Below, one piece after another: positions 10,763 through 53,170 of a stretch of 64,000 nucleotides of DNA; position 1 is the first letter of the stretch; every line of letters starts with the position of its first letter. The translations under genes and the position numbers were made by a program. Source of the stretch: a virus. Taxonomy: Duplodnaviria; Caudoviricetes. The notes under the pieces are model-generated. The model was not told the DNA's origin. It saw only the letters and a program-made list of their open reading frames with translations, and searched no databases. The stretch is taken from positions 128,001 through 192,000 of IMG/VR virus record IMGVR_UViG_3300028591_000083; one strand, written 5' to 3'.

Positions 10763-11019
10763 GCATCTTTCTAAGAGCTACATTTTCTTCAAGCAGTGCA
10801 AAGTTCTTATAAAAAACATCCATTGTTTCTTTTGGAAACTTCCAAAGTCTAGTTGCTGTGATATGAAGATTGTCTTTTATTCCGTTCTTTTCGAGTTCAA
10901 ACTTCAATCCGGAAGTATTCATATTCAGCAATTTACCGGAGAATCCATGTTCTTATAGGTATTTAATTACAAACATATCAAGTTTGCAAAACTCTTTCTT
11001 TCCTTCATACTTTGAAATA

Positions 11020-11421: not shown

Positions 11422-11456
11422 TTTAATCCTCCAAACATAGAGTATTTACCTTACAA

Positions 11457-11490
11457 ATATAGTATAACACATACTGTGGCGTTTGTCAAG
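11457..11490 (-). promoter_or_regulatory. sigmaA-type promoter
   Basis: TTGACA-N17-TATACT. Confidence 0.85.
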
Positions 11491-11507
11491 TGGTTGTGCA
11501 AAATAAA

Positions 11508-11551
11508 AATAACCAAAACTCAGTAAATGATTTGTTTGAGTTTTGGTTATT
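11508..11551 (-). terminator. intrinsic terminator of the DNA-modification operon
   Basis: 15-bp inverted repeat AATAACCAAAACTCA/TGAGTTTTGGTTATT followed by a U-tract on the minus strand. Confidence 0.75.
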
Positions 11552-11559
11552 ATGATTTA

Positions 11560-12453
11560 TTAAAATAACTTATTAGCACTTACTGTCTTAGTTTTGCTTT
11601 TCTCTGTCTTATAATTTATAATCAATACTTCATTAGTTTCACAATATCTGTCTTTCAGATTATAACTTGCAGCAGAATAATCAGTGTCGATATTCACAAT
11701 ATTGTATTTTTGCGCCCACCGTATTAGATTGTCATTCTTCATTCCTTTATGCTCTGTTACATTAGATAATGAAAATAGAATTCCTTTATCGTTTAGCGAA
11801 TCAAGCAACTGAAATAAATCAATGTCATCTTTGTCAGACCAACCATTGAATCCGCGCTTTCCGTCATTGTAAGATGCTGTTGATATTGAATATGGCGGAT
11901 CACAATAAACAAAATCTCCGGCAGATAAAATAGAGAAATCGAATGATCTGAAATCAACTGATGAAAACATAAAGTTCTTTGAATGTAAAGCATTGCAGAA
12001 TCGAATCAAGTTACTCTTTATATTCTCATTATATCTGCGCATTCCAAAAGAAGTATTGAACTCATGTTTACTGTTGAACCGTATTTGATGATTATATGAA
12101 AAACAAGTCAGTACAAATAAATCAATATTATTTCTAGTTCTGTTATATTCTTCTCTCAGTCTAAAATAAGAGTCTTTGTTATCGTTCGATAACCTATATT
12201 CAGCAATTCTTTCCTCAATTCGTTTGATCAGTTCATCTGTATCTATGCTTTGAAAATATTTATATAAATCAATTATATAAGAAATCTGATCATTTGCATA
12301 TATTGTATCTGCATTCACGTTGATTCCTACATTCAATCCGCCGCAAAATAGGTCAAAGAATTTTCCAATCTTATTTGGAAATACAGGAATAATTGAATCA
12401 AGTAATTTATATTTACCGCCGATATAATTCAATGGGCTTCTTATATAATTCAA
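11560..12453 (-). CDS. dam: Dam-family (D12) DNA adenine methyltransferase
   Basis: SPLNYIGGK, DLFCGG, RFN..EFN..FG, YCDPPY, EVLI.NY. Confidence 0.9.
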   Translation of the reverse strand: MNYIRSPLNYIGGKYKLLDSIIPVFPNKIGKFFDLFCGGLNVGINVNADTIYANDQISYIIDLYKYFQSIDTDELIKRIEERIAEYRLSNDNKDSYFRLREEYNRTRNNIDLFVLTCFSYNHQIRFNSKHEFNTSFGMRRYNENIKSNLIRFCNALHSKNFMFSSVDFRSFDFSILSAGDFVYCDPPYSISTASYNDGKRGFNGWSDKDDIDLFQLLDSLNDKGILFSLSNVTEHKGMKNDNLIRWAQKYNIVNIDTDYSAASYNLKDRYCETNEVLIINYKTEKSKTKTVSANKLF

Positions 12454-12465
12454 AGCATATTCACC

Positions 12466-13506
12466 TCAAAATAGTTTATTTTGTTTATTTGTAGTTTCTT
12501 TTAACTGCGGTTTCTTTAACTTAGATTCAACCAAATGAGCTTTATCTCTCTTAGCAAATTCAATTCTTCTTTCTGCAATATCACAATATTCTTTATTTAA
12601 CTCAATTCCTATAAAGCTGTAATTTGCATCACGATCATTGTTCTCGTAAGCAACAGCTTTTCCTGTGGAACCGCTACCCATAAACGGATCAAGTATTGTT
12701 TCTCCCTTTGGTGTTACAAGTCTTACTAAATATTGCATTAAGGAAGTTGGTTTTACGGTTGGATGAAAATTTTTATGCGGTGCTTTTTCACTTCCAAATT
12801 TCCCAGAGCAACTATTAACATCATCTACATAATCACCAATTCCTCCGCCACCTCCTACAGTTTGCTTTGTAGGTAGATCATCTAATCCCTCATCACGATC
12901 ACGCTTTGATGCCTTTGCACAATAAAAATATCTTGATGCTGACCCTGTGTCATTATAATTTGACGGTGCTTTCGGTTTATCACCATTAAACATTGATGTT
13001 TATTTATTATGATATTCTTTGCCAGAATAACTATACGGATTTCCACAATTTCCACTTCCGCTTATTGGAAATCCACCACAAACTTCATCAAAATCATCTT
13101 CATCGTATGTTAAAATCACATTAGCAGGAAATCTCCCATTATTGTTTATGTTCATTTCACCTTTATCTTTTTTAAGAACATATGAGGATGCATCTGTATC
13201 TGCGCCATGTTCTATCCTATATCCATTTATTTTTCTATAAAGTGGATTAGTTGCCGGATTCTTAGTATCTTCAAATGGTACTCTGCACTCATCTATATTT
13301 ATTCCACCAACTCCATACTTCAATACATTATCAACACAAGAACCATTGAAAGGTTTACGGGCTACTATTATAGGCTCGTAAGCTGGTTTAAGCTGTGTAC
13401 CAATCTGTTGAAGTTCGTTTATACAGTCAGGAATTATAAACTTACCGTCATCATCTTGTATTATTGAAATGATATTACCATTAACATTTACTTGATATTC
13501 TTTCAT
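12466..13506 (-). pseudogene. C-terminal part of an N4/N6 (beta-class) DNA methyltransferase, interrupted by one in-frame TAA at 13000-13002
   Basis: LKPAYEPI.VARKP, GRFPANVI, then in frame ...HNK*TSMFNG...SASRYF, HPTVKP, LDPFMGSGST. Confidence 0.75.
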
Positions 13507-14068
13507 AATCCTCTAAAACCTTTCGTAATTCATCAACTGTGGCATCTGCTTTAATTCGATTTGCCCTATTGCTAATAATTCTTATATTCCCTTTAACATA
13601 TCCTTTTGTACTATCAATTCTATCAACTGACGGACTATTATCTGTTGGTGCATGAACACCATCGTTTGAAATTATAGGTATTCCTAAAACGGGGCAAATA
13701 TCTGGTATTTGTGGTATATCATCAAGGGTTAAATTAAATTCAATCCCCTTCTGCTTCGCTCGTTTCTTTATAGAACACAGCATCTTATATCTTTTATTAG
13801 ATTTATTATGTAATTCTTCATACTGCCGATTACTCTCGGTTAGACATTTAAGCGAGCAGTAGTGATTGGCACTTCTGTTGTAATGTGTTTTTCCTCCTTT
13901 ATAAACATATGGTTTACCACAATAATCACATAATCTTGTGTGTGATTCTATAAATTGTTGTTTTGCGTATTTATAATAATGGTCTTTGCAGCAAAAATTA
14001 TGTTTCTTAATAATATATTGTTTAATTTCAAACTCCTTATTACAATAAGCACATTTTACTCTTTCCAT
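13481..14068 (-). mobile_element. free-standing HNH homing endonuclease with N-terminal zinc fingers
   Basis: CAYC..FCC, CDYC..YCS repeats; CPVLG...SVDRIDSTKGYVKGNIRIISNRANRIK. Confidence 0.85.
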
Positions 14069-14445
14069 TGAATATCTGTAACTCCCTGTTCTCTTAATTG
14101 CTCTTCTATATTTTTTAATACCTTATTGCCTATATTCATAGACTTAGGAAAACCTGAACCAAATAAATACATAATAGTATCTCTTATTTCAAATCCTGCG
14201 TCTTCAATAGCACAAGCAATCCTATGTTGAGTTCTTGGTGCTGCGAAAGATAGAAGATATCCACCCGGTTTTAATACTCGTAAACACTTCTTCCATGTTT
14301 CAACTGAAAAAGCTACTCCACGATTATCCCAATCATTTCCCATAAAATTTATCTCATAAGGAGGATCAGTTACAATACTTCCGATACTGTTTTCTTCTAG
14401 TTTATCTAATTCTTCTAACATATCTCCATTTATCAACTTAATCAT
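14056..14445 (-). CDS. N-terminal part of the split N4/N6 DNA methyltransferase
   Basis: VTDPPY, RVLKPGG, AIEDAGFEIRD, GSGFPKS. Confidence 0.85.
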   Translation of the reverse strand: MIKLINGDMLEELDKLEENSIGSIVTDPPYEINFMGNDWDNRGVAFSVETWKKCLRVLKPGGYLLSFAAPRTQHRIACAIEDAGFEIRDTIMYLFGSGFPKSMNIGNKVLKNIEEQLREQGVTDIQWKE

Positions 14446-14454
14446 CTTGTCACC

Positions 14455-15069
14455 TCAAAATAGTTTATTTTGTAATGTATTCTGTAATCTCTCTCTTGCA
14501 AGATTGTAGTATCGCTCGTTGATCTCGAAACCAAGATATTGACATCCAAACAACTTACACGCAACAAGAGATGATCCACTTCCAACATGAGTATCAAGAA
14601 TCTTCATATCTTTTGTTGCGAATGTGTTTAATAAATATGAATATAGCTCTACTGGTTTTTGAGTTGGATGAATTTTCTTTGTAGTTCTATTATCAAATCT
14701 AAATAGTTTAGCCGGTTTGTCATAAGAAGTCCACGCTAATTCTATTTGTGAAAAATTATCCCACGGCTGAACTTTATCCCAACAGACTATACACCTTGTC
14801 GGCGGAAGGTTGAAATAATTTCCGCCCCATATAATTTGATTTTTACTGACTCTAAATAATTCATCAAAATATTCCTGAGTAGGAGCGACATCCCATTCAT
14901 GAATACAGTCTGAATTGATGATTCTATTCTTTAATTTTCCTCTACAATGTGTTGAAGATTTGTCTAATCCATACGGAGGATCAACAATAGCAATATCAAA
15001 ATATTTATCTGGAATTTCTTTTAATGCTTCCATACAGTCTATGTTGTATAAATCATTTAGTTTATACAT
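14455..15069 (-). CDS. N4/N6 DNA methyltransferase
   Basis: IVDPPY, IWGGNYF, ELAWTS, HPTQKP, LDTHVGSGSS. Confidence 0.9.
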   Translation of the reverse strand: MYKLNDLYNIDCMEALKEIPDKYFDIAIVDPPYGLDKSSTHCRGKLKNRIINSDCIHEWDVAPTQEYFDELFRVSKNQIIWGGNYFNLPPTRCIVCWDKVQPWDNFSQIELAWTSYDKPAKLFRFDNRTTKKIHPTQKPVELYSYLLNTFATKDMKILDTHVGSGSSLVACKLFGCQYLGFEINERYYNLARERLQNTLQNKLF

Positions 15070-15078
15070 CTTATCACC

Positions 15079-15984
15079 TCAAAATAATTTATTCTTTTGC
15101 TCAATAATATATTCATTCAACCGATCATTGGATAAGTTGAAGTAATCTTCATCTAACTCAAATCCTATAAATCCTCTTTCATTTCTATATGCTGAAAGCA
15201 TAGTTAAACCAGAGCCGGAAAATGGATCAAGAATTAGATCGCCTTTATTACTGCTTGCAAGTATCAATCTATCAATCAGCTTTTGTGGCTTCTGTGTTGG
15301 ATGATATCTTTTTTCTTCATAGAAATTTATATCTCTCCAAACATCTGTAATTCCTAGCTGTGCGTTATATGTTTGTGATATCTTTTTATACTGCATATTA
15401 AACTGCAAAATCTCCTGTAGCTTGTTCCACAACTCTTCCGTTGGTATCTGTTTGCATACATTATCTCCTGTATAAATGCTCCACATACCGCCGCCATTAG
15501 ATTTTACACCTAATTTTTCGTTAATCTCTTTTGCGCTTAATCCAATCTCTTTTTGACGTTGTTTCAAGAATTCCTTAACAAATTGCTTTGAATCTTTTAT
15601 AAGAAACAATATGCTCTCTGTTACGTTCGGAAACATTTTATAGTTCTTTGTAGCTCTACCTGAAACAGACTTAATTCCTTTATCAATTATAATTTGCTGT
15701 CTTAATTCAAATCCAAATCTCTCCAATATTGGAAGTAGTTTACACAACATTCTAAAATATCCGAATAAATACATCGTTCCGCATTTTCTGAGAACTCTAT
15801 TTACTTCTGAAATCCATTTTTCAGACCATTCTAAATAGTCTAATTCTGTGCGCCAAATATAATCCCATTTCTCATCAATTACCTTAAAATACGGAGGATC
15901 TGAAATTATAAGATCAACAGATTCATTTTCAATATGATTTTTAATTCCTGTAATGCAGTCTTCTTTGAACAATTTTACAGACAT
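15079..15984 (-). CDS. N4/N6 DNA methyltransferase with internal HTH-like insertion
   Basis: SDPPY, HPTQKP, LDPFSGSG; insert FLKQRQKEIGLSAKEINEKLG. Confidence 0.88.
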   Translation of the reverse strand: MSVKLFKEDCITGIKNHIENESVDLIISDPPYFKVIDEKWDYIWRTELDYLEWSEKWISEVNRVLRKCGTMYLFGYFRMLCKLLPILERFGFELRQQIIIDKGIKSVSGRATKNYKMFPNVTESILFLIKDSKQFVKEFLKQRQKEIGLSAKEINEKLGVKSNGGGMWSIYTGDNVCKQIPTEELWNKLQEILQFNMQYKKISQTYNAQLGITDVWRDINFYEEKRYHPTQKPQKLIDRLILASSNKGDLILDPFSGSGLTMLSAYRNERGFIGFELDEDYFNLSNDRLNEYIIEQKNKLF

Positions 15985-15986
15985 AA

Positions 15987-16913
15987 TTATTTTCCTCTTT
16001 CTTTTGGATATGAATATGTTTTATTCTTTTCTTCAAACTCTTTTCTCAAACGCCTAGTCTCTAACTTCGATGCTCCAAGAACGTACACATATTTATGTTT
16101 TGGCGGGATATTCACTTTCTCTGATTTAGATTGCATCTTCTTAGAATACTCACGCAACTGATTTTCAACATCATCAGGAATATTATTAAATATAACTTTA
16201 TCACCAATAGACCAATTAGACTGCCACTCAATTCCCAAATCCTGCGCGTATCTTTTATAATAACTTCTGCTCCTAAAAGTTCGATCAGATATCAATTTTC
16301 CGCTGTACGGAGATATGTATTTGAATTTAGCGCCGAAACTATTTCCAAGATAATAGAAATTCAATGACTGATAAATTGTTCCTAATTCCTTTGCAGACGG
16401 ATCAGAATAAGCCGAGAACAAACGATATTTAGTATTCTTTACCATCCAACGAATACACCAACTAACAAAAGCGCTTCCTAAACACTTAGGCGACCATGAT
16501 ATACAAGCACCTCTTGAAATAAGTATCTCGATATCTTTTGTATTTTCTCCAAGCATATTTGAATATGCTGTTGGATTTCCCATTGTTACTACTCCGGCTA
16601 GAATATTATTATAATATGCACCGAAATAATGAGTTGTATTTAACGCAATATCTCCTAACCATTCATGTCTTTTTATAAACTGCCTCGCACAAGCCTTATC
16701 AAAATCACTTGTAATCCGCCTAAACTCAAATTCTGATACTTTCAGATCTTCATAATTTATTTCGTCAGGCAACAGCTTCAAATCATCTAATAGATTATTC
16801 AATCTTATATCATATTGCCAGCAGTGCGTCTTGTTATACGATTGCATTCTTTCTTGTTGCATTTTTCTTGAATCTGAATAATCGTCTTGAAAAAGTTTTA
16901 TTCTGTTTGGCAT
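15987..16913 (-). CDS. mom: Mom-family (GNAT) adenine modification enzyme
   Basis: ARQFIKRHEWLG, FGAY...AGV, ISRGAC, SAYSDP..ELGTIYQSLNFYYLG, KHKYVY. Confidence 0.78.
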   Translation of the reverse strand: MPNRIKLFQDDYSDSRKMQQERMQSYNKTHCWQYDIRLNNLLDDLKLLPDEINYEDLKVSEFEFRRITSDFDKACARQFIKRHEWLGDIALNTTHYFGAYYNNILAGVVTMGNPTAYSNMLGENTKDIEILISRGACISWSPKCLGSAFVSWCIRWMVKNTKYRLFSAYSDPSAKELGTIYQSLNFYYLGNSFGAKFKYISPYSGKLISDRTFRSRSYYKRYAQDLGIEWQSNWSIGDKVIFNNIPDDVENQLREYSKKMQSKSEKVNIPPKHKYVYVLGASKLETRRLRKEFEEKNKTYSYPKERGK

Positions 16914-16920
16914 ATTTACC

Positions 16921-18135
16921 TCAAAATAATTTCTTCTTTCTACTATTTTCTTTTATAGTAGCTTCTACTCTTTGTTTTCCTACTGCGCAATATGGATTTT
17001 CTTCTGAATTGCATAATTCTACATCTATATATCTTAAAGAATATCCACTTTCATAATTTAATTTTTCACAAGCTACAGCATGAGTACAACTTCCGGCTGT
17101 TATATCAATAGTAAGTCCTTCTTTCGGCGTAATTAGTTTAATTAACCAAGAAATTAGATCTATTGGTTTTAGAGTTACATGAGGATTTCTTTTACCGTTT
17201 GGAAGTAGTCTTTCTGACGGACTTACTTTAGGACAGTATTTGAAAACAGGAAATAATCTTGAACCGCCACCTGAATCTCCATATCCGCCAAGAGAATCAT
17301 TCTTATAGTTATCGTTGGTTTCTTGATTGAACGCTCCGTAAATATGTCTTGCACGACATACTGTAGATGCTTTACCAGAACAACCTGTTGATTTTGTAAC
17401 TCCTGTTTGCCTATCAACTTCATCTGTGATATTGTCAGCTAAAACAATATTCGGCGGAAATCTACCGGCTTCATTTGCAGGAACCGCAATGTCTTGAGCA
17501 TAAGCTCCATAAACTTTATCTTCTTTATTTGAATAATTAGTAGTTGGATTCTTAGAAGCCTTTGCATTTAACATATCAATATCTTCTTTTGAAATAGGAA
17601 CTCTACAAGCTCCTATATTCATTCCGCCAACTCCGTACTTTTCAATATTCTCAATATATGTTCCTTCTAATGGTTTTTGAAAGATTGTTATTGTTTCGTG
17701 TGCTGGTTTTAGCCCTGCTGTTTTCCAATCATTCCATTTTTCTGAAAATTCTGAACTGCTGACCCCATTCTTTCGATCATACATTTTTCCGATATCTTGA
17801 TTTGACGGCATACCGCTGCAATAGATCCAATCAACTTCTTCAACAATAGTAAATCCAGAATCTTCAAAAGCAGATTTCATTCTATGATTAGTTTTAGGAC
17901 TTCCAAAGATAGCTGCATATGATCCATGTTTCATAATTCTGATAAGTTCTTTTGCTCGTTCTTCGCACCACCCATAGAAGTTCTTACTGGAATCCCAATT
18001 TTTTCCCATAAAATCAATAGCGTAAGGAAAATCAGATATGCATGAATCAATAGAATTATCTTCTACTGATTTCATCCATTCTATATTATCTGCGTTTATA
18101 ATTTTGCCGGATTTAGATTCATAAATTATTTCCAT
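16921..18135 (-). CDS. divergent N4/N6 DNA methyltransferase
   Basis: SDFPY, LKPAHETI, GRFPPN, HVTLKP, DITAGSCT. Confidence 0.8.
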   Translation of the reverse strand: MEIIYESKSGKIINADNIEWMKSVEDNSIDSCISDFPYAIDFMGKNWDSSKNFYGWCEERAKELIRIMKHGSYAAIFGSPKTNHRMKSAFEDSGFTIVEEVDWIYCSGMPSNQDIGKMYDRKNGVSSSEFSEKWNDWKTAGLKPAHETITIFQKPLEGTYIENIEKYGVGGMNIGACRVPISKEDIDMLNAKASKNPTTNYSNKEDKVYGAYAQDIAVPANEAGRFPPNIVLADNITDEVDRQTGVTKSTGCSGKASTVCRARHIYGAFNQETNDNYKNDSLGGYGDSGGGSRLFPVFKYCPKVSPSERLLPNGKRNPHVTLKPIDLISWLIKLITPKEGLTIDITAGSCTHAVACEKLNYESGYSLRYIDVELCNSEENPYCAVGKQRVEATIKENSRKKKLF

Positions 18136-18173
18136 TATTAACTATTTCCTTTCTACTGAAAGTAATTCTTTAT

Positions 18174-18214
18174 TTTATTATAACACAAACCGCCTGAAAT
18201 GTCAAGCGGTTTGT
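18174..18214 (-). promoter_or_regulatory. sigmaA promoter of the modification operon, overlapping a hairpin
   Basis: TTGACA-N17-TATAAT; arms ACAAACCGC/GCGGTTTGT. Confidence 0.8.
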
Positions 18215-18222
18215 AGTTATTT

Positions 18223-18684
18223 TTAAGTTACGTTTTTCAGAAGTTCATCAATCTTATCATAGGCTTCGCCGCTGTCAATAATTCCTACTGTTGAAAGATT
18301 ATCTGCTAGCCATGAGAAATAAGCAATGCATAAAGTATCTAGTTCTTCTTTAATAGTCATAATGTCTTTCGTGTTTTTGAAATTCTCTTTTCTGCAAACA
18401 TTTCTAACTGAAATTGTAATCCAGTTATCATCTGTTACTCTATCTTGTCTTTTTCCATATGTTGCATCATAGATGAACTTCTTTTTAGGCAACCTCTTAT
18501 TTCCTTTCTGAATATCAATGTCAGAAAGAAACGATACAATTTCCTGTTTCCAGTGATTTCGAGCCGAATTATTCTTATCCAATACAAGGTAAAGTAAATG
18601 TTCAATTATCTTTACAGTTCTTGCTTTGAGATCACGCTCAATTTCTTTTCTCTGCTCTACGAATTCAAACAATCTGATAACCAT
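18223..18684 (-). CDS. DUF29-like helical protein, paralog 1 (start revised to MVIRLFE)
   Basis: IIEHLL...NHWKQEI..F...LP...IYD.TYG...CRKEN...YFSWL. Confidence 0.65.
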   Translation of the reverse strand: MVIRLFEFVEQRKEIERDLKARTVKIIEHLLYLVLDKNNSARNHWKQEIVSFLSDIDIQKGNKRLPKKKFIYDATYGKRQDRVTDDNWITISVRNVCRKENFKNTKDIMTIKEELDTLCIAYFSWLADNLSTVGIIDSGEAYDKIDELLKNVT

Positions 18685-26872: not shown

Positions 26873-29113
26873 TCAGTTGCTTTCTTTACAATGTTTGCGC
26901 TTACCCTGCTTTTCATGTGTAGCTACCTCCAAATACAATTTATCGTTTTTCAATTTAACATTTATACTACTGTTTTCAAAACATCCAAACTTATCGCTAT
27001 TCAATATCAAATCATCTAAATATGATTCAATATTTCGTTCAATAAATCTTACTCCATTCTTTCTATCAAAGCTATGTTCACACATAAAGTCAATGGCTTT
27101 ATCACTAAATAGAATCTCTGTTCTTAATTTTTCCATATATCTTTGTGATATTTTTGATAGCTTTAGATTGAATATTCTACTAGATAATTCTTTTGTGATT
27201 GGCTTAAACATAATGATTGAATCTAATCTATTCCTGAACTCAGGAGATAGGAAGTTATTTACTGCGTTTGTCACCGCAGATTCTCTGAATTCTGTTTCAG
27301 TAAATCCGATTTGTTTTGTTTCAAGATATTCTTTACATCCTAGATTTGAAGTCATTATAATCAGACAGTTTCTAAAATCAACTGTTTCTCCATTTGCTTC
27401 TGTCAACCTACCGCAATCCATTATTTGAAGAAAAACATTCAATACATCTTTATGTGCTTTTTCAATTTCATCAAGAAGTATTACAGAAAATGGATTATGT
27501 TTAACGTGTTCTGTCAAGGCACCTCCTGCGTGAAATCCGACATAGCCGGGTGGAGAGCCAATAATTTTAGAAACTGAATGTGATTCCATAAACTCAGACA
27601 TATCTAATCGAATAAAACTTTCGTCTGAGAATATGTGTTTTGCAATTAGTTTACTCAATTCTGTTTTTCCTGTTCCTGTAGATCCTACAAAAAGAACAGA
27701 TGCTATTGGCTTTTCAACATTGTTTAGTCCTACAAAATAACGCTTGATGTACCGCATCATAGTATCTACGGCTTCATCCTGTCCAATAATAGATGCTTTT
27801 ATATCTTTGGTTATTTTATCTATGTCTGGTTTCTGTTGATCTTTTGTTTCAATATTTAAGTAACTCATAAGTAAGTTACTTACAAGTTTATTATCCGGAT
27901 CACAACCACTTAGCTTTGCCTGAACACATACTTTATCTAAAATATCTAACGCCTTATCTGGAAAATACCGATTCCGTATATACAAGTCACACATATCAAT
28001 AATACACTGACACACTGAATCTGATACTGTCACACCGTGAAATTTCTCATAAGCACTTTTTGAATTCTTTACGATTTCAAATGCTACTTCTTTCGTTGGT
28101 TCAGCAATATGAATTTTTTGAAATCTTCGTTCAAACGCCCTGTCTGTTTCAATCTTCCGGTACTCTTTTTCTGTCGTGCATCCAATGACAATAGATTCTC
28201 TTGAAAGAAAATTCTTTAATACACTTTCTATTGGAACACTATCACTATCACCTGTACCACTCGTAAACAATGTATGAATCTCATCAATGAACAGTATAAT
28301 ATTCCTATGTGATTCTAATTCTGAGATTAGTTCTTGAAGTCTTTTTTCAAGATCACCTCTATACGTGGTTCCACTTACTAACTTATTAGTGTCGAGTGAA
28401 AAAACACATTTACCTTCTAACTGTTTCGGGCATTTTTCTGATTGAATATAATTACAGATACCATAAACAACAGAGGTTTTACCTACACCTGTATTTCCAA
28501 CCAGAAGAACATTTGATTTTTTCATCTGACAAAGTGTTTTAATACTTTTTTCAATTTCAACTTCTCTTCCGAAACAATCACGATGTTTTATCATCAATGG
28601 ATTTATTAGATATTCACCATAAGCACATAACTTAGATGACATCGGATTTCCTATTTTTCCAACAATAAATGTGAGTACATCTTTACGTGCTTTTTCGGAA
28701 GCATTATTAAATAATGCATTTTCAAAAAATATGTAGCTTTTCAAACTCTTATTTGATAACAGCAGGTATGTAACATACTGAGTAAGAAGTTCTGAATCAA
28801 TCTTCTGCTTGTATGATCTGATAAAGAATAAATAATTATCTAAGAATTCCTCAAACTCATATGATAACTTTATATCCTCATACTCAAAATACTTCTTCTC
28901 TGCTGCACCATCTTGTTTCAACATCGTATTGATTACTTTGTCATAGCTTTCTTTTATATTATCTACTACAATCTTTTTTACAATTCCTTGTTGAACGCAT
29001 AAAGCGGAGAACAATTCTGTATCAATCACTTCATATTTATTTGGAAGCATTCTGAATGTAAGTTGTGCCGTTTTAGGTAGTTTTGTAAAAAAGTCTACAT
29101 ATTTTGATTGCAA
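26873..29113 (-). CDS. ClpA/ClpB-family AAA+ ATPase
   Basis: GNTGVGKT, GTTYRGDLE, FIDEIH, AFERRFQ, FPDKALD, GSTGTGKT, RLDMSEF, GSPPGYVG, LLDEIEKAH, PEFRNRLD. Confidence 0.92.
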   Translation of the reverse strand: MQSKYVDFFTKLPKTAQLTFRMLPNKYEVIDTELFSALCVQQGIVKKIVVDNIKESYDKVINTMLKQDGAAEKKYFEYEDIKLSYEFEEFLDNYLFFIRSYKQKIDSELLTQYVTYLLLSNKSLKSYIFFENALFNNASEKARKDVLTFIVGKIGNPMSSKLCAYGEYLINPLMIKHRDCFGREVEIEKSIKTLCQMKKSNVLLVGNTGVGKTSVVYGICNYIQSEKCPKQLEGKCVFSLDTNKLVSGTTYRGDLEKRLQELISELESHRNIILFIDEIHTLFTSGTGDSDSVPIESVLKNFLSRESIVIGCTTEKEYRKIETDRAFERRFQKIHIAEPTKEVAFEIVKNSKSAYEKFHGVTVSDSVCQCIIDMCDLYIRNRYFPDKALDILDKVCVQAKLSGCDPDNKLVSNLLMSYLNIETKDQQKPDIDKITKDIKASIIGQDEAVDTMMRYIKRYFVGLNNVEKPIASVLFVGSTGTGKTELSKLIAKHIFSDESFIRLDMSEFMESHSVSKIIGSPPGYVGFHAGGALTEHVKHNPFSVILLDEIEKAHKDVLNVFLQIMDCGRLTEANGETVDFRNCLIIMTSNLGCKEYLETKQIGFTETEFRESAVTNAVNNFLSPEFRNRLDSIIMFKPITKELSSRIFNLKLSKISQRYMEKLRTEILFSDKAIDFMCEHSFDRKNGVRFIERNIESYLDDLILNSDKFGCFENSSINVKLKNDKLYLEVATHEKQGKRKHCKESN

Positions 29114-30286: not shown

Positions 30287-30655
30287 TTAGAATAATTTTG
30301 GTTTTGATTTAGTGCTAAGATGTGTTAGAACAATATCTTCCTTCTTTTTCTTGATATCTGAGGATTTATGTGAATTATCTGCGCCTGTCACTATTTCAAC
30401 AAACCGAATATCGGAATCTTCATATTTACACCGAACATATTTTATTGACATTGTTTTAGATATAATATAAGCATCAAACTCATACTCATTAGCTGAAGAA
30501 GCTATTTCATCACTATATTTATCTGAATCCACATATGCCAAATAATATATTAAGCTGTCTGTTGCAGAAACGTATTTTAGTTTATTATTTATTAAATATT
30601 TTGAAGATATTGTTCTATTCTTTGGAATCTTTTTAATGTCTGATTGGAAGTCCAT
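30287..30655 (-). CDS. hypothetical protein with C-terminal KLF tail
   Basis: ends KSKPKLF*. Confidence 0.55.
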   Translation of the reverse strand: MDFQSDIKKIPKNRTISSKYLINNKLKYVSATDSLIYYLAYVDSDKYSDEIASSANEYEFDAYIISKTMSIKYVRCKYEDSDIRFVEIVTGADNSHKSSDIKKKKEDIVLTHLSTKSKPKLF

Positions 30656-35621: not shown

Positions 35622-36563
35622 TTACAAGATATTTACCAGTAAATAATCAACAACCATTTCTGGTTGAATACTTCCATCTTTTACACCTCTATCGCAGTAT
35701 CTTACATACTTCAAAAACCGAACAAGCTCAGAATTACTATATTTTCCAACAAAATGCTTACTGTTCTTAATCTGGAATCCTGTAAGACCTGTTGAATCAG
35801 CAATATTCTTAATATTTCCGGCTGTTTGAACTTGAAGAACTGTTTTTACTTTCGTATGTAAAAGTGAAATGATAGCAAGCGGATTATCGCCGCGCTCTTT
35901 GGATTCTTCCAGTAACTCATACACAGACTTTACATCTCTATCAAGAATCGCATCAATCAAATCAAACATTTCACCTTCAACATCAATATAGAAAGCTCCT
36001 TCATTATAGCATTCTTTGAAAGCATCCATATAAGATATTGATCTGAAATTAGCAAGACTTTTGACCTTATCAATTTCAAGAAGAATTCTTCCATAATCAT
36101 TATGTGTGATATCGCACAAGTATTTACAGCATTTATCCGTAATGTCTACGTCATTCTTAATATACTTAGTAAGAACTTCAACAGATAAAGGCTGAAACTC
36201 TGTAATATAATCATCAAACGTCTTACTGAACTTTGAACGTGCATCAATATCTAAGTATTTTACAATAAGTGTTGCTTTTGCTCGTTCAAGTTTCTTTACA
36301 ATGTCTTTCCATATTGATTCTTCCGTGAGAAATTCCTTATCATACCGAACAAGATACAGTTGCTTTCCAGAATCAAATAAATTACGTCTGTCTAAATTCC
36401 TGTATACTGAATCTACCGTATCGGCTTCAATGATATTTAATCCGATACCGTCTGCAACCTTTTGAATATAAATATCAAGAATTGTATATTCTGCTCCTGC
36501 AAACACATAAAAATTCCTGAATTCTTTTTTCAATAGGCTGTTACATAACTCTAAAAGATTCAT
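35622..36563 (-). CDS. holA: clamp loader delta subunit (start revised to MNLLELC)
   Basis: FYVFAGAE, RNLF clamp-contact motif, ILLEIDKV, FDLIDAIL, D..VK.G. Confidence 0.78.
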   Translation of the reverse strand: MNLLELCNSLLKKEFRNFYVFAGAEYTILDIYIQKVADGIGLNIIEADTVDSVYRNLDRRNLFDSGKQLYLVRYDKEFLTEESIWKDIVKKLERAKATLIVKYLDIDARSKFSKTFDDYITEFQPLSVEVLTKYIKNDVDITDKCCKYLCDITHNDYGRILLEIDKVKSLANFRSISYMDAFKECYNEGAFYIDVEGEMFDLIDAILDRDVKSVYELLEESKERGDNPLAIISLLHTKVKTVLQVQTAGNIKNIADSTGLTGFQIKNSKHFVGKYSNSELVRFLKYVRYCDRGVKDGSIQPEMVVDYLLVNIL

Positions 36564-37411
36564 ATTGCACCGCCTGAAACGTCTAAATGCGTATTCAAAA
36601 TCCAATTATCAAGTATCATTTGCTTATTGCTTCCCTTTTGGCACAGCTCAGACAAATGTTTACTTGTCTGCTTTATGATCTTTGCAAACGCCTCATAATC
36701 TTCTCTTGAACATTTCTCTTTCATTGAACTTTCGCACACAAGCATAACACACCGCATAAACAATACAGGATCAAACTTGTCATCTTCATCTTTTTTAACA
36801 TTTAATGAAGAACTAATCTTGAATTCATTGTAGATTTTTGCAAACCCTATATTCTGAACAAACTTGTCTGCCAAATCATACAAACCGATAACATCAATAG
36901 AATTACATATTGTAATATCTTTTGGACAAGTGCTTATCTGATATGCAATTTTCTCCGTTTTATCTCTAAGACTTAAATCCATTGTCTTTGCATATTCTTT
37001 CAAATCAATAACAGAATAATTATTGAGATGAAATACTGTTGCTCTACTGATGATTGTTGGTAGTACGTTTGATAGATTTTGAACTGTCATAATGAAGTAT
37101 GCGTCATTCGGCGGCTCTTCTGTCACTTTTAAGAGTGCATTCTTTGCGCCAACTGACATATCATCTGCATCAAAAATCATAAATAGTGTTTTTGCTACAG
37201 TGTTGTATGCTTTTGAAATTGTATCTCTAACATCATCAATAGATGTTCCACATGGAACAAAAGTGCATCCAAGTTTTTTAGATGTCCACTCAGACATTAC
37301 TTTCTTTCCAAAACCTTCCGGAGATGTAAATATACAAAATCTTGGGAATTTATCTCGCTCAATTAACGATTCTATTCTTTGCTTTAATTCTTTTTGTCCA
37401 CATACATACAT
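36560..37411 (-). CDS. holB: clamp loader delta-prime subunit
   Basis: PEGFGKK, DADDMS..AKNALLK.TEEPP, VLPTIISR. Confidence 0.85.
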   Translation of the reverse strand: MYVCGQKELKQRIESLIERDKFPRFCIFTSPEGFGKKVMSEWTSKKLGCTFVPCGTSIDDVRDTISKAYNTVAKTLFMIFDADDMSVGAKNALLKVTEEPPNDAYFIMTVQNLSNVLPTIISRATVFHLNNYSVIDLKEYAKTMDLSLRDKTEKIAYQISTCPKDITICNSIDVIGLYDLADKFVQNIGFAKIYNEFKISSSLNVKKDEDDKFDPVLFMRCVMLVCESSMKEKCSREDYEAFAKIIKQTSKHLSELCQKGSNKQMILDNWILNTHLDVSGGAI

Positions 37412-37414
37412 TAA

Positions 37415-39655
37415 TTAACCCTCCGAACAAAGAAGAATAAACTGAGATTCAATCATTGGTTTCGGTGTAGATTCCCACTTAATATCTGTATTCAGCTTCA
37501 TTACAGCATTAAGAAGATCTGAGAAGAAAGAATAGTGTTCTTTTGTATATGACTTCATCTTATCTTCATATGATGTCGGCAATTTCAAGAACTCAAAAGA
37601 ACGGCAAACATCATATTTGCACAGGTCAAGAACAAAGTAATTGTATTCATTAATAAACTGTTTAAGATCAATACCATCTCTGTGAATAGTCTCAATAATT
37701 TCAATAACTTTTTGCTTATTCATATTATATAGAGAATCTGTCAACTCAAACATAATACTATAATCAATAGAACCAAGAGCTTTTGTAACAATATCTAAAG
37801 TAAGATTATCTGAATATCCGAGTGCTTTTTCCATAAGAGTAATAGCATCTCGCATTCCACCTTCAGACAGCTTCGCAATATAATCAATCGCATCTTCTGT
37901 ATATGTGTAGTTATGTCCTTCATTATTTTCTGAATCAAGGATGAATTTCAATCTGTTCACAACTCCGGAATGCGAAATACGCTTAAAATCATATCTTTGA
38001 ACTCTTGAAAGAATTGTTTTCGGAAATTTCTGAGGATCTGTAGAACAAAAAATAAAAACACTTGTCGGTACCGGCTCTTCAATAGATTTCAGTGCAGCTT
38101 CCCACGCTGCTTTAGAGAAGTTGTGAGCTTCGTCAAGTAAAAACACACGGTAATCAGTTCCAATAGGCTTACTTCTTGCTTGATTTAGAATACTCTTCAT
38201 ATCTTCAACACCGTTATGTGAAGCCGCATCCAATTCTACTATTGTAGAATTGATAGAGTTTGCAAAAGTTCTTGCCAATGTTGTATTGTGAGTTGGAACA
38301 AAATTATCTGTTATATATGTATGATCTTCATGGTCTACATAAATACACTGACATTCTTCTTTTCCAACATATTTTATTGCCACTATTTTTTTAATCGGAT
38401 CACTCTGTCTTTTTTTCCTCCTTCTTAAATGTTTCTCAGAGGAACAATATACAAGATTATTTGGAAACTTTACATGATGCCTATATGATGTTGAGCAAAT
38501 AACTTTTTCCCCATCTTTATTTATATAATTTGATTGTCTACTGGTTACAGTATCTCTACACCCCAAAGACCTTACAAGGAATGAAAAGTCATCCGATAAC
38601 TGCTTACTAGATGTTGAAAACTCAGTTACGCCATTTTCAGATGTATATCCGTCAGAATCAAAAAGTCCTCTCAAGAGTTCCAATCTCGTATCTATGTCAT
38701 TTAATAAATATTCTTTCGGTATAAATTTATCTGTTGATTTAACACAAATACCAAGATTCCTTAAGTCATCTCTGAAGCTAACATGGTTTGAATAATTATC
38801 GTTCGCTACTCTTTTTATTTTTCCAAATAACTCAGGATATTTTCCAAACGTAGTTGATGCATCTCCTGTTGAAATTCTATATATTGTTTCTTGATCAAAT
38901 TTTGGATACCCGATAGAATTCAAATCCTCAATTAACTTATATGGTCCTTTATATGTTATATTATTAAATATATAGAAATTCTTAAAATTATCTTGTTTTC
39001 CGGAGATTCTGTAATCATACTTTGATCTATATTTAACATCACAGTCATACTTACTCAAAATATCAGATACCTTGTCTATTACATCTTTCTCGTTGTTTGA
39101 GAATCCAAAGCTACCTCCGCATAAGTTACCGTCACCTAAAAGAAATCCAACTAAATAAGGATCAATGGGGATTTCTTTTTTTGAAAACGGTACTGTTGGT
39201 ATCTCAACGCGCAATTTCTTTTTAGAGGTTTCAAACAATTTAATTAAATCACGGGTTTCTATAACAAAATAATCATTTCCTTTTCGTTTTCCATTATATG
39301 TATAGATGCAGTTCAAATGATTATCAGCAACACGTATTGATGTTTTGTCGTTAAAACATATTTCATACACATCTCTAACACCTTGATTAAATACACCAGA
39401 AACAACTGCAACGCTGCCTGTGTGCGTGATTACCTCTGAACCGCACTTAATGTCTTTCATCTTAACAAACCCGTTCGGCGTCAGAACATCACTGTCAAGC
39501 GGCTGTGCTTTACCACATCCAGAAGATCCGCAGAACAGATACGTATTCCTAATCTTATTCTCTTTAATATGATTCAATAAGATATCTTTTACAACGGATT
39601 GTTCTACAGTGTCTTCAAATGTTTTCGGGCGATACTTTACAGCTAATGATTGCAT
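37415..39655 (-). CDS. dnaX: clamp loader gamma/tau subunit containing an intein
   Basis: LAVKYRPKTF, GSSGCGK|intein|TTLAR, ELDAAS, LDEAH, LKSIEEP, TILSR, GGMRDA. Confidence 0.93.
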   Translation of the reverse strand: MQSLAVKYRPKTFEDTVEQSVVKDILLNHIKENKIRNTYLFCGSSGCGKAQPLDSDVLTPNGFVKMKDIKCGSEVITHTGSVAVVSGVFNQGVRDVYEICFNDKTSIRVADNHLNCIYTYNGKRKGNDYFVIETRDLIKLFETSKKKLRVEIPTVPFSKKEIPIDPYLVGFLLGDGNLCGGSFGFSNNEKDVIDKVSDILSKYDCDVKYRSKYDYRISGKQDNFKNFYIFNNITYKGPYKLIEDLNSIGYPKFDQETIYRISTGDASTTFGKYPELFGKIKRVANDNYSNHVSFRDDLRNLGICVKSTDKFIPKEYLLNDIDTRLELLRGLFDSDGYTSENGVTEFSTSSKQLSDDFSFLVRSLGCRDTVTSRQSNYINKDGEKVICSTSYRHHVKFPNNLVYCSSEKHLRRRKKRQSDPIKKIVAIKYVGKEECQCIYVDHEDHTYITDNFVPTHNTTLARTFANSINSTIVELDAASHNGVEDMKSILNQARSKPIGTDYRVFLLDEAHNFSKAAWEAALKSIEEPVPTSVFIFCSTDPQKFPKTILSRVQRYDFKRISHSGVVNRLKFILDSENNEGHNYTYTEDAIDYIAKLSEGGMRDAITLMEKALGYSDNLTLDIVTKALGSIDYSIMFELTDSLYNMNKQKVIEIIETIHRDGIDLKQFINEYNYFVLDLCKYDVCRSFEFLKLPTSYEDKMKSYTKEHYSFFSDLLNAVMKLNTDIKWESTPKPMIESQFILLCSEG
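38285..39508 (-). mobile_element. 408-aa Ala1 intein with LAGLIDADG homing endonuclease, inserted in Walker A of DnaX
   Basis: starts AQPLDSDVLT, ends PTHN/T; VGFLLGDG and LRGLFDSDG motifs. Confidence 0.92.
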
Positions 39656-50569: not shown

Positions 50570-51084
50570 TTACTATTCACCTCGCCCCACATCAAGTCCG
50601 ATTCTTTATGAAGATTTGATAAAGCCATATCTCCAAAGTAATCAAACAAAACCTTCTTTTTTCTTCCATCTAAAATAAAGTGTCTAACACTGTTCTCACC
50701 AGTAATATCAGAAATATTCAGCGATTTTGCACCAGATTTTCTATGTTCCCATAAGTCTTTGATATTTACAAAAACTGTAAGATCATAATCAATAAACCAA
50801 ACACAAACACCTGCTACACATCTATATAACTTACTCTTTTCGTACATACCTTCCCACTGATTCTTTGTTATTGCTCCGGCATAGTTTAGAGTATTTCCAT
50901 ATAAACACTTGCACTCTAAATAAAACATATCAGGAGAACTAAACATAGAGAAGTCACAAATATTTCTTACACCTGAATATCCTGCCATCGGGTCAGGAAG
51001 CCTATCAAACGAAACATTCTTTAACTTTTCAAATGCTTTTCTGATAGCTCCTTCAAAATCCTTACCTCTGTTTACAGCTCTCAT
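50566..51084 (-). CDS. recU: RecU-like Holliday junction resolvase
   Basis: NRGKDFE, CDF, LECK, I..NQ. Confidence 0.8.
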   Translation of the reverse strand: MRAVNRGKDFEGAIRKAFEKLKNVSFDRLPDPMAGYSGVRNICDFSMFSSPDMFYLECKCLYGNTLNYAGAITKNQWEGMYEKSKLYRCVAGVCVWFIDYDLTVFVNIKDLWEHRKSGAKSLNISDITGENSVRHFILDGRKKKVLFDYFGDMALSNLHKESDLMWGEVNSK

Positions 51085-52043
51085 GATTTATCCACCTTAC
51101 ACTGTGTTCTGTATTCACAATATTGACATACTTTTGGATTTACTTCATTCTTAGGTGGAACAATCTTATTTTTTACATAAGATTCACAACAATCAATTCT
51201 GTTCTCAATGTATCGCTTATTCTCATCCGTGACATGAAGAATATAGCTTTTCTTCGTACATAGATCACGATTTTCATATAAGAACAATACATCTTCAATT
51301 CCGAATTCAAGCGCATACGTATACGCTTGATGTCTGTGAACATCCGCAATATATTGTCGTTCACCAAATTTGTATGAAGATTCTGTCTTACACTCAAAGA
51401 CATACATTTTTCCACGGTATTTTAATAGTCCATCACACAGAAATACAAGATTCAGATTAGGATCAAATACCTTTGTTTCAAATTCTTCTTTTTCAAGAAC
51501 TTCAAGCGGAAGATTGTTTTCTTTGATGTATGTTTCAACATCAATGTATTCACAATCAACTCCGTACTCTTTCATTTGACACAAAACATTCTGGATTCTT
51601 TTATGTCTGTCTGTTCCTGACTCGCAGATACCATAAAATTCACTTGTTTTGTCTGACTGCTTATCTAAATTTGCACCAATGATTTGATAATACATTTGTC
51701 GTGTGCAGTTCATTGATGACGGCTTATAATGCTGTGACGGCTTACCGTCATAATATTCAACAATGTAATATTCCTGATCGTTGGTATGATATACAACTCC
51801 TGTTTTAGAATACAGCATTGATTCATCACAGGTTTCCGGCAGTACATCTAGGCATACAACATTTACTTGTTTTCCTGAGTTGTTTATACTAGATAACTCA
51901 ATCTTCTTAAAAAAACATTTTGCTGTACGCTCGTTCATTTTTCGTAACGTATAGTCAAAATCTCGCAAAAAGGATACCTCGATTGGGGTATCCTTTTCAC
52001 TTACCATTCGACTAATGTTAAATAACGACTTAGCCTTTGGCAT
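51081..52043 (-). CDS. Cas4-like PD-(D/E)xK exonuclease
   Basis: PSS..C.RQ.YY, GTDRH, CDGL, FECKT, HQAYTY, CQYCEY...C. Confidence 0.8.
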   Translation of the reverse strand: MPKAKSLFNISRMVSEKDTPIEVSFLRDFDYTLRKMNERTAKCFFKKIELSSINNSGKQVNVVCLDVLPETCDESMLYSKTGVVYHTNDQEYYIVEYYDGKPSQHYKPSSMNCTRQMYYQIIGANLDKQSDKTSEFYGICESGTDRHKRIQNVLCQMKEYGVDCEYIDVETYIKENNLPLEVLEKEEFETKVFDPNLNLVFLCDGLLKYRGKMYVFECKTESSYKFGERQYIADVHRHQAYTYALEFGIEDVLFLYENRDLCTKKSYILHVTDENKRYIENRIDCCESYVKNKIVPPKNEVNPKVCQYCEYRTQCKVDKS

Positions 52044-52054: not shown

Positions 52055-53170
52055 TTATTCATCTTCATCATCAAATCTTGGATCATTCAAAAGTCCAATG
52101 ACCTGTGTAATACTTCCGTCTTTTACTGTGATAGTTGACGGATTTCCATAGTAAATATGAACAGATTCACCAGAACGTGCAACCAACTGCTTTCTGATTG
52201 CATTCGTATCAATGCAGCAAGTATAATCCTTGAAATTATTACTACCCTGATACGAAATAGTCTCAATAGCATCAGAATTCATTGATTCAAGTTTAACACC
52301 ATCTTTTGTGAAAGTCATGTAAATTCCGTCAAGCTCAGATGGTCTTTTATCCTTCTTATCAATGAACAGAGACAGTCTATCTACCGCACTGATAATATGA
52401 GATTTTGGAAGAACACAGTCTGAAGGATATTCGGCAGAACAGTAATCCTTAATTCTGTCAACAGGATATGCACCATCATCACTAACTGTTACAGAGAACA
52501 ACTTTACGGTATCTGTTTCAAACAGAATGTTATTCTCATACATCTTAACATAGATTTCTTCTTCGTTTACCATACTGAGAAGATCGAATACAGATGGAGC
52601 AATCAATGTTCTAGTTCCGAAAGTCTCAACATCGTTTTCACAGATATTGTATTCATCACCGGAAATAACACAATCATCGGCACACATATATCGTGTGAGA
52701 TACGGCTTCTCCAAAGATGTGGAAAGACAAGGCTTATTGTATTTAACAATACTCTTGATAACAGCGGTCTTGATTGTGCATTCATTATCAGGACTATTGA
52801 TCTCATGTTCCGGATACTGAATTTCAGAACCATCAACATCAACCTGAATCGGAATCTTATATGTTCCGTTACCGATAATTGAAATAGAATCAGATGTAAG
52901 AGAAATCCTTACTGATTCAGAAGTTGTTTTTGAAACCAGTTTACTGAACCTGTCAACGTCCACAGTGAAGGACATATTATCGCCTGAAACATCATTTTTT
53001 CTCACAGTCCAATAATTATCTCCGTCTGTTGTTGTAAGACTGAGAACATTGTCTTTCAGCTCAACGTGCATAAAACAAGTAATCACGCTATAAGGCAGAT
53101 TTCCTGCGCCTTTTACTGAGCGTGAAACAAGATTTTGTAGTTCTTTAATATTGATAACAAACTGACTCAT
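52055..53170 (-). CDS. dnaN: DNA sliding clamp (Pol III beta-like)
   Basis: 371 aa; LSLTTTD, F.KLVSK, YP motifs, AVDRLSLF; clamp loader in same window. Confidence 0.8.
   Translation of the reverse strand: MSQFVINIKELQNLVSRSVKGAGNLPYSVITCFMHVELKDNVLSLTTTDGDNYWTVRKNDVSGDNMSFTVDVDRFSKLVSKTTSESVRISLTSDSISIIGNGTYKIPIQVDVDGSEIQYPEHEINSPDNECTIKTAVIKSIVKYNKPCLSTSLEKPYLTRYMCADDCVISGDEYNICENDVETFGTRTLIAPSVFDLLSMVNEEEIYVKMYENNILFETDTVKLFSVTVSDDGAYPVDRIKDYCSAEYPSDCVLPKSHIISAVDRLSLFIDKKDKRPSELDGIYMTFTKDGVKLESMNSDAIETISYQGSNNFKDYTCCIDTNAIRKQLVARSGESVHIYYGNPSTITVKDGSITQVIGLLNDPRFDDEDE

Follow-up and report, generated by a model that had tools for sequence, protein, structure and literature searches.

Why do DNA methyltransferases of two different classes, encoded close together on one phage genome, all end in the same three residues? 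The question is raised by a 64,000-nucleotide stretch of viral DNA (referred to as the window) that comprises bases 128,001–192,000 of a single 207,349-bp viral record (IMG/VR IMGVR_UViG_3300028591_000083), a linear contig according to IMG/VR, with an estimated completeness of 89% (CheckV), a G+C content of about 33% and nearly all of its genes on the minus strand. Between positions 11560 and 18135 of the window, on the minus strand, five methyltransferase open reading frames (ORFs), one of the D12 class and four of family PF01555, close with Lys-Leu-Phe (referred to as the KLF tail). By stop position their ends read SANKLF (11560), KQNKLF (12466), LQNKLF (14455), EQKNKLF (15079) and NSRKKKLF (16921). 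The first-pass annotation, made from the sequence alone, had listed these five ends and proposed that they dock the enzymes to a sliding clamp, with modification of nascent phage DNA at the replication fork as the result. All five ends were present, and each ORF exceeds the curated Pfam cut-off of PF02086 or PF01555, the domain matches by which they are predicted to be methyltransferases; the ORF at 12466..12993, however, proved to be only the C-terminal piece of a split gene. Our analysis indicates that the tail is a selected protein motif, whose receptor is probably the beta-type sliding clamp of the phage itself.

The frequency of the tail was examined over the whole genome with a crude, non-overlapping set of 325 ORFs (93% coverage). 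KLF turned out to be the top C-terminal tripeptide, closing 7 of the ~325 ORFs (next best 3) versus an expectation of 0.18 derived from the frequency of KLF within the same proteins (binomial P = 1e-9). Two of these seven are not methyltransferases, one being the NAD-dependent DNA ligase and the other a 122-aa ORF. Tails occur on the methyltransferases and ligase in 6/6 cases and on 2/319 of the remaining ORFs (Fisher P = 1.8e-11), and the tag marks DNA-modifying and sealing enzymes. Because the PF01555 paralogues are only 24–40% identical, and this in motif regions only, and the D12 enzyme does not match them significantly, the shared tail is not a relic of recent duplication. A megablast search of window positions 11000–19000 against cultured phages yielded no match. 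Further KLF occurrences had been pointed out at the end of the 122-aa ORF (KPKLF), at the start of a Mom-like protein (MPNRIKLF) and inside an initiator-like protein (NNKLF). The first two were found as described; the third is indeed present at residue 219 but adds nothing, since the crude proteome contains 36 KLF tripeptides in total. Likewise, the MSVKLF start of the 301-aa methyltransferase is unremarkable, as the N-terminal strand to which it belongs is conserved among PF01555 enzymes.

Varied codons had been taken as a sign of selection on the protein, and the codons for K-L-F do vary, being AAG TTA TTT in one, AAA CTA TTT in two and AAA TTA TTT in two of the methyltransferases, AAA TTA TTC in the 122-aa ORF and AAG TTG TTC in the ligase. 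The competing view is that KLF is the by-product of a nucleotide junction, either the 3′ boundary of a cassette or a translational-coupling signal spread by recombination. Indeed, four of the five methyltransferase ends share the exact 15-mer AAAYTATTTTGAGGT, which matches the window 4 times versus 1.2 expected (at least 4 matches in 2 of 100 shuffles), and in the junction form AAAYTATTT TGA GGTGA the stop codon is part of the ribosome-binding site of the next gene. However, the genome has 17 TGA-GG junctions, and the 11 GGTG ones located off the methyltransferases and ligase end in unrelated residues. Moreover, the tail of the D12 gene runs into TAA TAA, and neither a ribosome site nor a coupled gene lies downstream, and the ligase and 122-aa ORF write their tails in other codons.

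Relatives of the phage bear on the same point. In L014 (212 kb) and L015, 5/5 and 7/7 intact methyltransferases, respectively, end in [K/R/T]-L-F, with Leu encoded by CTA, TTA, TTG or CTG, K alternating with R and seven different sequences following the stop, and the adjoining genes that do not encode methyltransferases are without tail. The TGA stop of the 204-aa methyltransferase of the window falls within GAGGTGA, the ribosome site of the gene behind it, and the L014 orthologue of this enzyme ends ..LQKKLF followed by TAA TAA; the L015 counterpart of the 404-aa methyltransferase has 400 aa and ends ..RNKKLF. In alignments of D12 and DpdA-like proteins, the final L-F alone is invariant after a variable linker, and many phages also conserve the tail in their ligase and DpdA genes, which are unlinked. 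Codons, K/R exchange and downstream DNA vary in relatives while the residues stay, so that the junction is not a sufficient explanation and we give it next to no credence. The tag is under protein-level selection, and we are close to certain that the tail is a selected protein motif.

A possible function of this motif is suggested by the homologues. Bacterial beta-clamp-binding motifs take the form of a pentapeptide QL[S/D]LF or a hexapeptide QLxLxL and fit the hydrophobic cleft between clamp domains II and III, and their clients include Pol II, III, IV and V, MutS, MutL, Hda, LigA and transposases. The phage tails are located at the extreme C-terminus after linkers of 7–30 residues, which vary while L-F is invariant. 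In the D12 enzyme, the tail ..KTVSANKLF follows a variable linker of ~16 residues after the last conserved strand EVLIINY, with L296 and F297 invariant in 14 phage-lineage homologues, and the L-F-COOH end is kept throughout the phage-lineage homologues of 59–88% identity. In the next tier of D12 homologues, at ~60% identity and partly on contigs as long as 2 Mb, the ends are EQMTLML, EQLSLIPE or EQLTLTL. Similarly, the 12 closest homologues of the 301-aa methyltransferase (72–89% identity) all end KLF, and the ~70%-identity tier often ends RQLSLF, KQMTLF, QQMSLPI or QQISLPL. The C-terminal motif Q-x-x-[LM]-x-[LFIP] was present in ~86 of 120 D12 and ~52 of 120 PF01555 homologues, against a background of 0.5% of internal positions matching the same pattern. 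Among the carriers are the methyltransferase of a MamI-type restriction-modification system on the Campylobacter showae chromosome (..RQLSLLI; L018/L019:8001-8900) and, ending ..EQMTLML (L016:8001-8897), a protein of an integrative element located beside two methyltransferases without any tail. Cellular homologues thus lack the KLF tail, and in many a canonical clamp motif stands there instead, as would be predicted if the tail docks to a clamp. Judging from these alignments, the tag is found at the site that holds canonical clamp motifs in more distant homologues, and clamp tethering of restriction-modification methyltransferases may be widespread in bacteria.

The ligase provides an independent client. 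DNA ligase is a classical clamp client, and 28 of 120 LigA homologues, all of phage lineage, possess a K/P-rich extension of 20–30 residues past the BRCT domain that ends in [KR][KRGS][LF]F (such as KRKLF, KKSLF, KRGLF or RRGFF; five on contigs of 200–220 kb). In the remaining 92, some of which are named from Ruminococcus and Lachnospiraceae, the chain terminates directly behind BRCT.

As the first-pass annotation had supposed, the phage encodes both its own beta clamp (52055..53170) and the delta, delta-prime and gamma/tau subunits of a clamp loader (35622..39655). As a single sequence the clamp stays under the Pfam gathering scores of PF00712/PF02767/PF02768 (21.9 vs 24.4; 17.8 vs 27). However, it has 837 relatives in a set of 1.84 billion representatives, and a profile built from 101 family members shows full-length similarity to solved three-domain beta clamps of bacteria (7evp, E = 4e-20; 4tr6 from Bacillus subtilis, E = 1e-18), and 35 solved beta-clamp sequences are matched over positions 1–351. 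By this profile comparison the protein is a divergent, phage-specific branch of the beta clamps. Its C-terminus is acidic (..NDPRFDDEDE), and among 150 family representatives 64% have at least two D/E in the last six residues, with K/R being rare; a typical end, after the last strand, is ..TQIIALLEDEE, corresponding to DDEDE in the window phage. The C-terminus of bacterial beta clamps forms part of the wall of the client pocket, and an acidic extension at this pocket would be a good match for a basic tail.

If any one protein is expected to hold a clamp, it is the replicative polymerase. The family A polymerase (PolA) of the window, whose gene adjoins that of the clamp, begins with MGFFGLD.. 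followed by a linker and has an acidic C-terminus (..EDDEDEDDD). Most PolA proteins recovered from clamp-encoding relatives (L020-L078) carry an N-terminal M-x-(x)-[LF]-[LF] or KSLF (MAGFFNLP, MSGLFNLPP, MALFDMP, MALFNFN, MPSVKSLF) and then a basic, low-complexity linker, so that this motif is a candidate for the clamp-binding motif of the replicative polymerase.

Whether the tail travels with the clamp was examined in 57 viral loci around homologous clamp genes, found with an 8-row clamp alignment. LF was the top C-terminal dipeptide near the clamp, ending 72 of 1034 crude ORFs (next EE, 38), and was nearly always preceded by K or R. Ten sampled tailed proteins included PF01555 methyltransferases, a C5 methyltransferase (PF00145), DpdA-like guanine transglycosylases (phrog_887), a class-I S-adenosylmethionine (SAM)-dependent methyltransferase, a DUF6884 protein and a small Nlig-Ia ligase-like protein. 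Within 50 clamp-bearing records, 10 of the 11 above-cut-off PF01555 methyltransferases end in [KR]x[LF]F. As a negative control we used 80 viral D12 methyltransferases picked by domain motifs alone. None of their 79 complete ORFs showed a basic-LF tail, most stopping at the domain boundary ..EVLITNY; two ended in the EQMTLML type and three in ..SLF, ..ELF or ..ALF. A clamp of the window type was found in 0/43 of the control records searched, including 0/18 near-complete ones, by a search that recovered 5/5 known positives. Of 77 complete DpdA-like proteins collected without reference to the clamp, 69 end in LF; 50 of their records were searched, and the clamp was present in 45, including 23/23 near-complete ones. 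The DpdA proteins of Dp-1 and Flasso end ..RQRRLF and ..QGKLF, respectively; the DNA of Dp-1 contains dPreQ1 (PMC6884629). Accordingly, the tag co-occurs with this clamp family.

These controls also bear on the host. The tail might bind the host beta clamp, instead of or besides that of the phage, as a divergent host-type motif; two tails (QNKLF) share Q1, L4 and F5 with the bacterial consensus, and related methyltransferases on other elements carry host-type motifs. However, all basic-LF tails found belong to lineages encoding a clamp of the phage family; the control D12 ORFs had none, the few tails present among them being Q-type, and their searched records yielded no clamp of the window type. 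Moreover, a phage equipped with both a clamp and a loader would be expected to use the phage clamp on phage DNA. We consider the host clamp a very improbable receptor.

More weight attaches to another protein of the replisome. The tail could dock to a co-inherited member such as PolA, SSB, the clamp loader, the helicase or the Cas4-like nuclease rather than to the clamp. The clamp always comes with the same Dp-1-like module, so that tests of co-occurrence fit any member, and PolA and clamp are both acidic at their C-termini and could both attract a basic tail. Against such a receptor, the distant homologues hold, at the same position, a motif that is specific for the bacterial beta clamp, the tailed ligase belongs to the classical clamp clients, and LF-COOH is the core of known clamp motifs. 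Further evidence comes from five phages of Gram-negative hosts (L261-L265; four of them Queuovirinae), which were not picked up when cultured phages were searched with the clamp protein. Their DpdA proteins again end in LF-type motifs (..LQDLFDE, ..IQELF, ..VMELF, ..QMELF and ..LELF), and in 9g (L261), Pseudomonas phage TIVP-H6 (L263) and a Stenotrophomonas phage (L265) dpdA is located directly upstream of an annotated replicative clamp gene; two of these three are classed in Queuovirinae. Note that, with an annotated clamp gene directly after dpdA in 3/5 of the fetched phages, these do not form a clean clamp-less negative set.

The physical interaction was modelled for the D12 tail. Co-folding of a clamp dimer with D12 residues 258–297, both supplied as alignments, gave a score of 0.58, the best of three controls reaching 0.02. 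The mark is reached by 58 of 80 solved complexes and by 2 of 110 mismatched pairs, but of those scoring at most 0.60 at the mark, only 7 belong to the 80 solved complexes and both passing mismatches fall there; the support is weak. At least 55% of contacts are shared between the runs, and the pLDDT (predicted local distance difference test) of the partner is at least 39. Because beta-clamp–peptide complexes are present in the PDB, the pass may reflect likeness to these, and it moved the odds only slightly.

Several observations weigh against docking to the phage clamp. Tested against the bacterial consensus, the tails ANKLF, QNKLF (twice), KNKLF and KKKLF show L4 and F5 in 5/5, Q1 in only 2/5 and a hydrophobic second position in 0/5; as they depart from the strict consensus, the tail was filed as a variant rather than a canonical motif. 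One PF01555 methyltransferase in a clamp-bearing fragment (L159) is without tail. Many of the 57 and 80 IMG/VR loci are close relatives from one sample, so that independent events are fewer than the counts suggest. The clamp is inherited together with a conserved module of the Dp-1 type (PolA, SSB, Cas4-like nuclease, RecU, recombinase and loader), and co-occurrence therefore cannot separate it from the other module proteins; inflated counts and joint inheritance taken together, these data point to a receptor in the replisome and only indirectly to the clamp itself. Finally, the co-fold output came without a reported interface, and the AlphaFold2 (AF2) model of the D12 methyltransferase has a mean pLDDT of 59.5, with the tail and many core segments at low confidence, so that it offers no evidence for specific disorder of the tail. 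Those checks suggested in the first-pass annotation that were run turned out in favour of its reading. On balance, it appears likely that the tail docks to the replisome. The enrichment, the motifs of the homologues, the ligase and the clamp and loader genes together support the phage's own clamp as the probable receptor, at a probability of about 0.68; another co-inherited replisome protein appears unlikely.

The 122-aa protein (..SKPKLF, AAA TTA TTC TAA) invites a different thought. Viral relatives of it were not found. Just downstream of its ORF lie a ClpB-like double AAA+ ATPase (746 aa, 26873..29113) and a PhoH-like ATPase (together 26873-30271, minus strand), and the neighbours of the protein in an Atlas feature search were Mu-transposase C-terminal domains (score 0.91), which is no more than a lead, as the 155–167 shared features lie under the 170 typical of true family members. 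The C-terminus of MuA is basic-hydrophobic and is recognised by ClpX. The KLF tail might thus be a C-terminal unfoldase or protease recognition signal that limits the lifetime of DNA-modifying enzymes: it resembles this MuA end, the ClpB-like ATPase is encoded two genes from the 122-aa KLF protein, and the Atlas lead points to Mu transposases. However, such a signal leaves unexplained the clamp motifs of the homologues, the tailed ligase, the N-terminal LF motif of PolA and the link with the clamp family, and we see only a slender chance for it.

Returning to the phage clamp as receptor, the proposed mechanism would be as follows. The motif [K/R]-x-[L/F]-F-COOH, here xKLF, on a short variable linker would serve as a portable docking tag for the clamp. 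The delta, delta-prime and gamma/tau proteins of the phage would load the clamp behind the fork, and the clamp left on the new duplex would act as a tool-belt. The Leu-Phe pair would enter the hydrophobic client pocket of the clamp, in a predicted geometry like that of L4-F5 of the bacterial QL[SD]LF, and the basic residues ahead of it would be attracted by the acidic C-terminal tail of the clamp family. The presumed clients are the five methyltransferase ORFs of two classes, the NAD-dependent ligase and, perhaps through an N-terminal copy, the Mom-like enzyme; in related phages they would also include C5 methyltransferases and DpdA 7-deazaguanine transglycosylases. With the enzymes that act on fresh duplex carrying the tag, modification and nick sealing would trail synthesis closely, possibly to the benefit of protection from restriction.

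A bolder extension is a private clamp-client code, in which the acidic-tailed phage clamp would read basic-LF tails that the host clamp does not read, and the host QLxLF would go unread by the phage clamp. Captured enzymes (methyltransferases of any class, Mom, DpdA, ligase) would then become coupled to the fork by swapping a few C-terminal residues, tail type would track clamp type in bacteria, mobile elements and phage families alike (QLSLF for host beta, [KR]xLF for Dp-1-like clamps and [QM]ELF for the clamps of Queuovirinae), and clamp tethering would be a general, hitherto overlooked means for prokaryotic restriction-modification and phage modification enzymes to keep pace with replication. 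We regard this extension as possible but doubtful.

The coordinates of the genes are collected in Table 1. The split methyltransferase (12466-14445) consists of three pieces collinear with the 404-aa paralogue, of which the N-terminal one aligns to residues 11–116 and the C-terminal one to residues 316–391. It is cut by the 195-aa ORF, which overlaps both of its neighbours, and by a stop, a TAA 6 nt ahead of the next ATG. An HNH-like motif read near the C-terminus of the 195-aa ORF suggests that it may be a homing endonuclease; the arrangement as a whole could reflect the insertion of a homing endonuclease or intron, a multi-subunit enzyme or a pseudogene. The Mom-like protein has an N-terminal extension of ~16 residues (MPNRIKLFQDD..) that is missing in three relatives (52–57% identity), which begin at about residue 17–21 of the window protein, and the extension may be an N-terminal copy of the tag. 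The clamp was not seen in the records of these three relatives, which are incomplete. A related-locus search with the 404-aa methyltransferase returned one distant locus (L003, from a 414-kb phage), in which the methyltransferase is without tail and the record without a clamp of the window clamp's family.

Table 1. Genes of the methyltransferase cluster, the replication genes and the further tailed ORFs (window positions unless marked otherwise).
Feature	Coordinates	Strand	Basis
D12-class N6-adenine DNA methyltransferase, 297 aa	11560..12453	-	PF02086, E=6.6e-37
C-terminal piece of split PF01555 methyltransferase, 175 aa, SAM-binding region	12466..12993	-	PF01555, E=1.4e-20
Middle piece of split methyltransferase, 168 aa	13000..13506	-	residues 142-264 of 404-aa paralogue, E=3e-15; no Pfam match for the piece by itself
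Cys-rich inserted ORF, 195 aa	13481..14068	-	no Pfam match at E<=0.01
N-terminal piece of split methyltransferase, 129 aa, DPPY catalytic motif	14056..14445	-	PF01555, E=4.5e-9
PF01555 methyltransferase, 204 aa	14455..15069	-	PF01555 match above curated cut-off
PF01555 methyltransferase, 301 aa	15079..15984	-	PF01555, E=1.2e-42
Mom-like DNA-modification protein, 308 aa	15987..16913	-	PF25680, E=1.9e-15
PF01555 methyltransferase, 404 aa	16921..18135	-	PF01555, E=1.1e-20
122-aa KLF protein	30287..30655	-	no Pfam or PHROG family
Clamp-loader delta	35622..36605	-	PF21694 DNA_pol3_delta_C, E=4.9e-14
Clamp-loader delta-prime-like	36560..37411	-	PF13177, E=9.3e-22
Clamp-loader gamma/tau with LAGLIDADG intein	37415..39655	-	PF13177, PF22608, PF12169; PF14528/PF05204
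Beta-type sliding clamp, 371 aa	52055..53170	-	family profile vs solved beta clamps
Family A DNA polymerase, 791 aa	53253..55628	-	PF00476, E=1.6e-81
NAD-dependent DNA ligase, 695 aa, ends KLF	genome 94346..96433, outside window		adenylation, OB, HhH and BRCT domains

Within the replication module, the order clamp, Cas4-like nuclease, RecU-like resolvase, unknown, recombinase equals that in Streptococcus phage Dp-1, and the closest cultured phages with a clamp of the window type are Clostridium phages phiCTP1 and FA88, Bacillus phage Flasso and Streptococcus phages Dp-1 and MS1. The Cas4-domain nuclease (51081..52043, minus strand) beside the clamp begins with MPKAKSLF; this start was dropped as evidence, as it is not kept in L020, the only close relative with a readable N-terminus. 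Just downstream of the clamp-loader delta gene lies a gene for a 59-aa Zn-ribbon-like protein (CRRCG..GPKC; 35430-35609, minus strand), which bears the only canonical host-type clamp motif of the genome (..KHQISLFEIEEGD) and might bind or block the host or phage clamp. Outside the window, a 206-aa protein (genome 63845-64465, minus strand; L001:3846-4466) ends ..EQVKEDGLF, an LF end without basic residues. A UvrD-like helicase (46834-48882, minus strand) gave a weak match to the intein-splicing domain PF14890 (23.1 bits vs a cut-off of 35.8 bits), consistent with an intein.

Clamp-binding tails are a known kind of motif. The two recent reviews checked do not count the predicted clients, DNA-modifying enzymes of prokaryotes and phages, among the partners of the clamp. 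The words 'clamp' and 'C-terminal' are absent from the paper on phage 7-deazaguanines and DpdA of Hutinet et al. 2019 (PMC6884629). A 2025 restriction-modification review (PMC12707154) lists how protective modification keeps pace with replication as an open question, and neither this review nor a 2026 review of prokaryotic methyltransferases contains 'clamp', 'DnaN' or 'replisome'. A literature search of limited coverage returned no description of clamp motifs in prokaryotic or phage methyltransferases or DpdA. If the tails bind clamps, phage and many bacterial modification enzymes would be clients of the replisome, a few C-terminal residues would decide whether a captured methyltransferase protects new DNA in time, and tail type could predict on which clamp a mobile element relies. 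Removal of the tail suggests itself as a simple way to weaken the anti-restriction modification of phages, the motif could be used to find further clamp clients, and the idea is directly testable in the cultured phages Dp-1, Flasso and 9g.

Compared with known systems, the KLF tail resembles the bacterial clamp motifs in being a short linear motif at a flexible terminus that ends in Leu-Phe, in its association with a beta-type (DnaN-like) clamp and a bacterial-type loader, and in having ligase among its presumed clients. It differs in that the phage form [K/R]-x-[L/F]-F-COOH usually lacks the Q and the hydrophobic second residue, in that the phage clamp family is acidic-tailed and in that the predicted clients are DNA-modification enzymes. 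In T4 and RB69, C-terminal clamp-interaction tails on the gp43 polymerase, gp33 and gp55 bind the gp45 clamp. As in the window phage, a phage-encoded clamp there forms the hub for C-terminal hydrophobic peptides on several phage proteins; however, gp45 is a trimer rather than the beta-type dimer predicted here, the peptide is another one, and the T4 clients are the polymerase and transcription factors, gp45 having a role in late transcription. In phage Mu, MuC is reported to use the host beta clamp for late transcription (PMC12867686); there too a phage protein is recruited via a clamp, but clamp and client are the host's and a transcription factor, respectively, whereas here a family-wide tag would sit on DNA-modifying enzymes. 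The phages with DpdA (Dp-1, Flasso, 9g, Seuratvirus and Nipunavirus) share the LF-type tails, yet the window encodes methyltransferases and a Mom-like enzyme, not DpdA. A parallel in function is the coupling of DNMT1 to PCNA via a PCNA-interacting-protein (PIP) box in eukaryotes (cited in PMC9690074), in which a DNA methyltransferase is likewise held on a sliding clamp and methylation follows replication, as is predicted here. The analogy is functional only, since the phage tails are without PIP-box spacing and the clamp is of the beta type: PCNA is a trimer, its client carries an internal Qxx[LIM]xx[FY][FY] and the CpG mark is maintained, whereas in the virus several enzyme classes share one tag.

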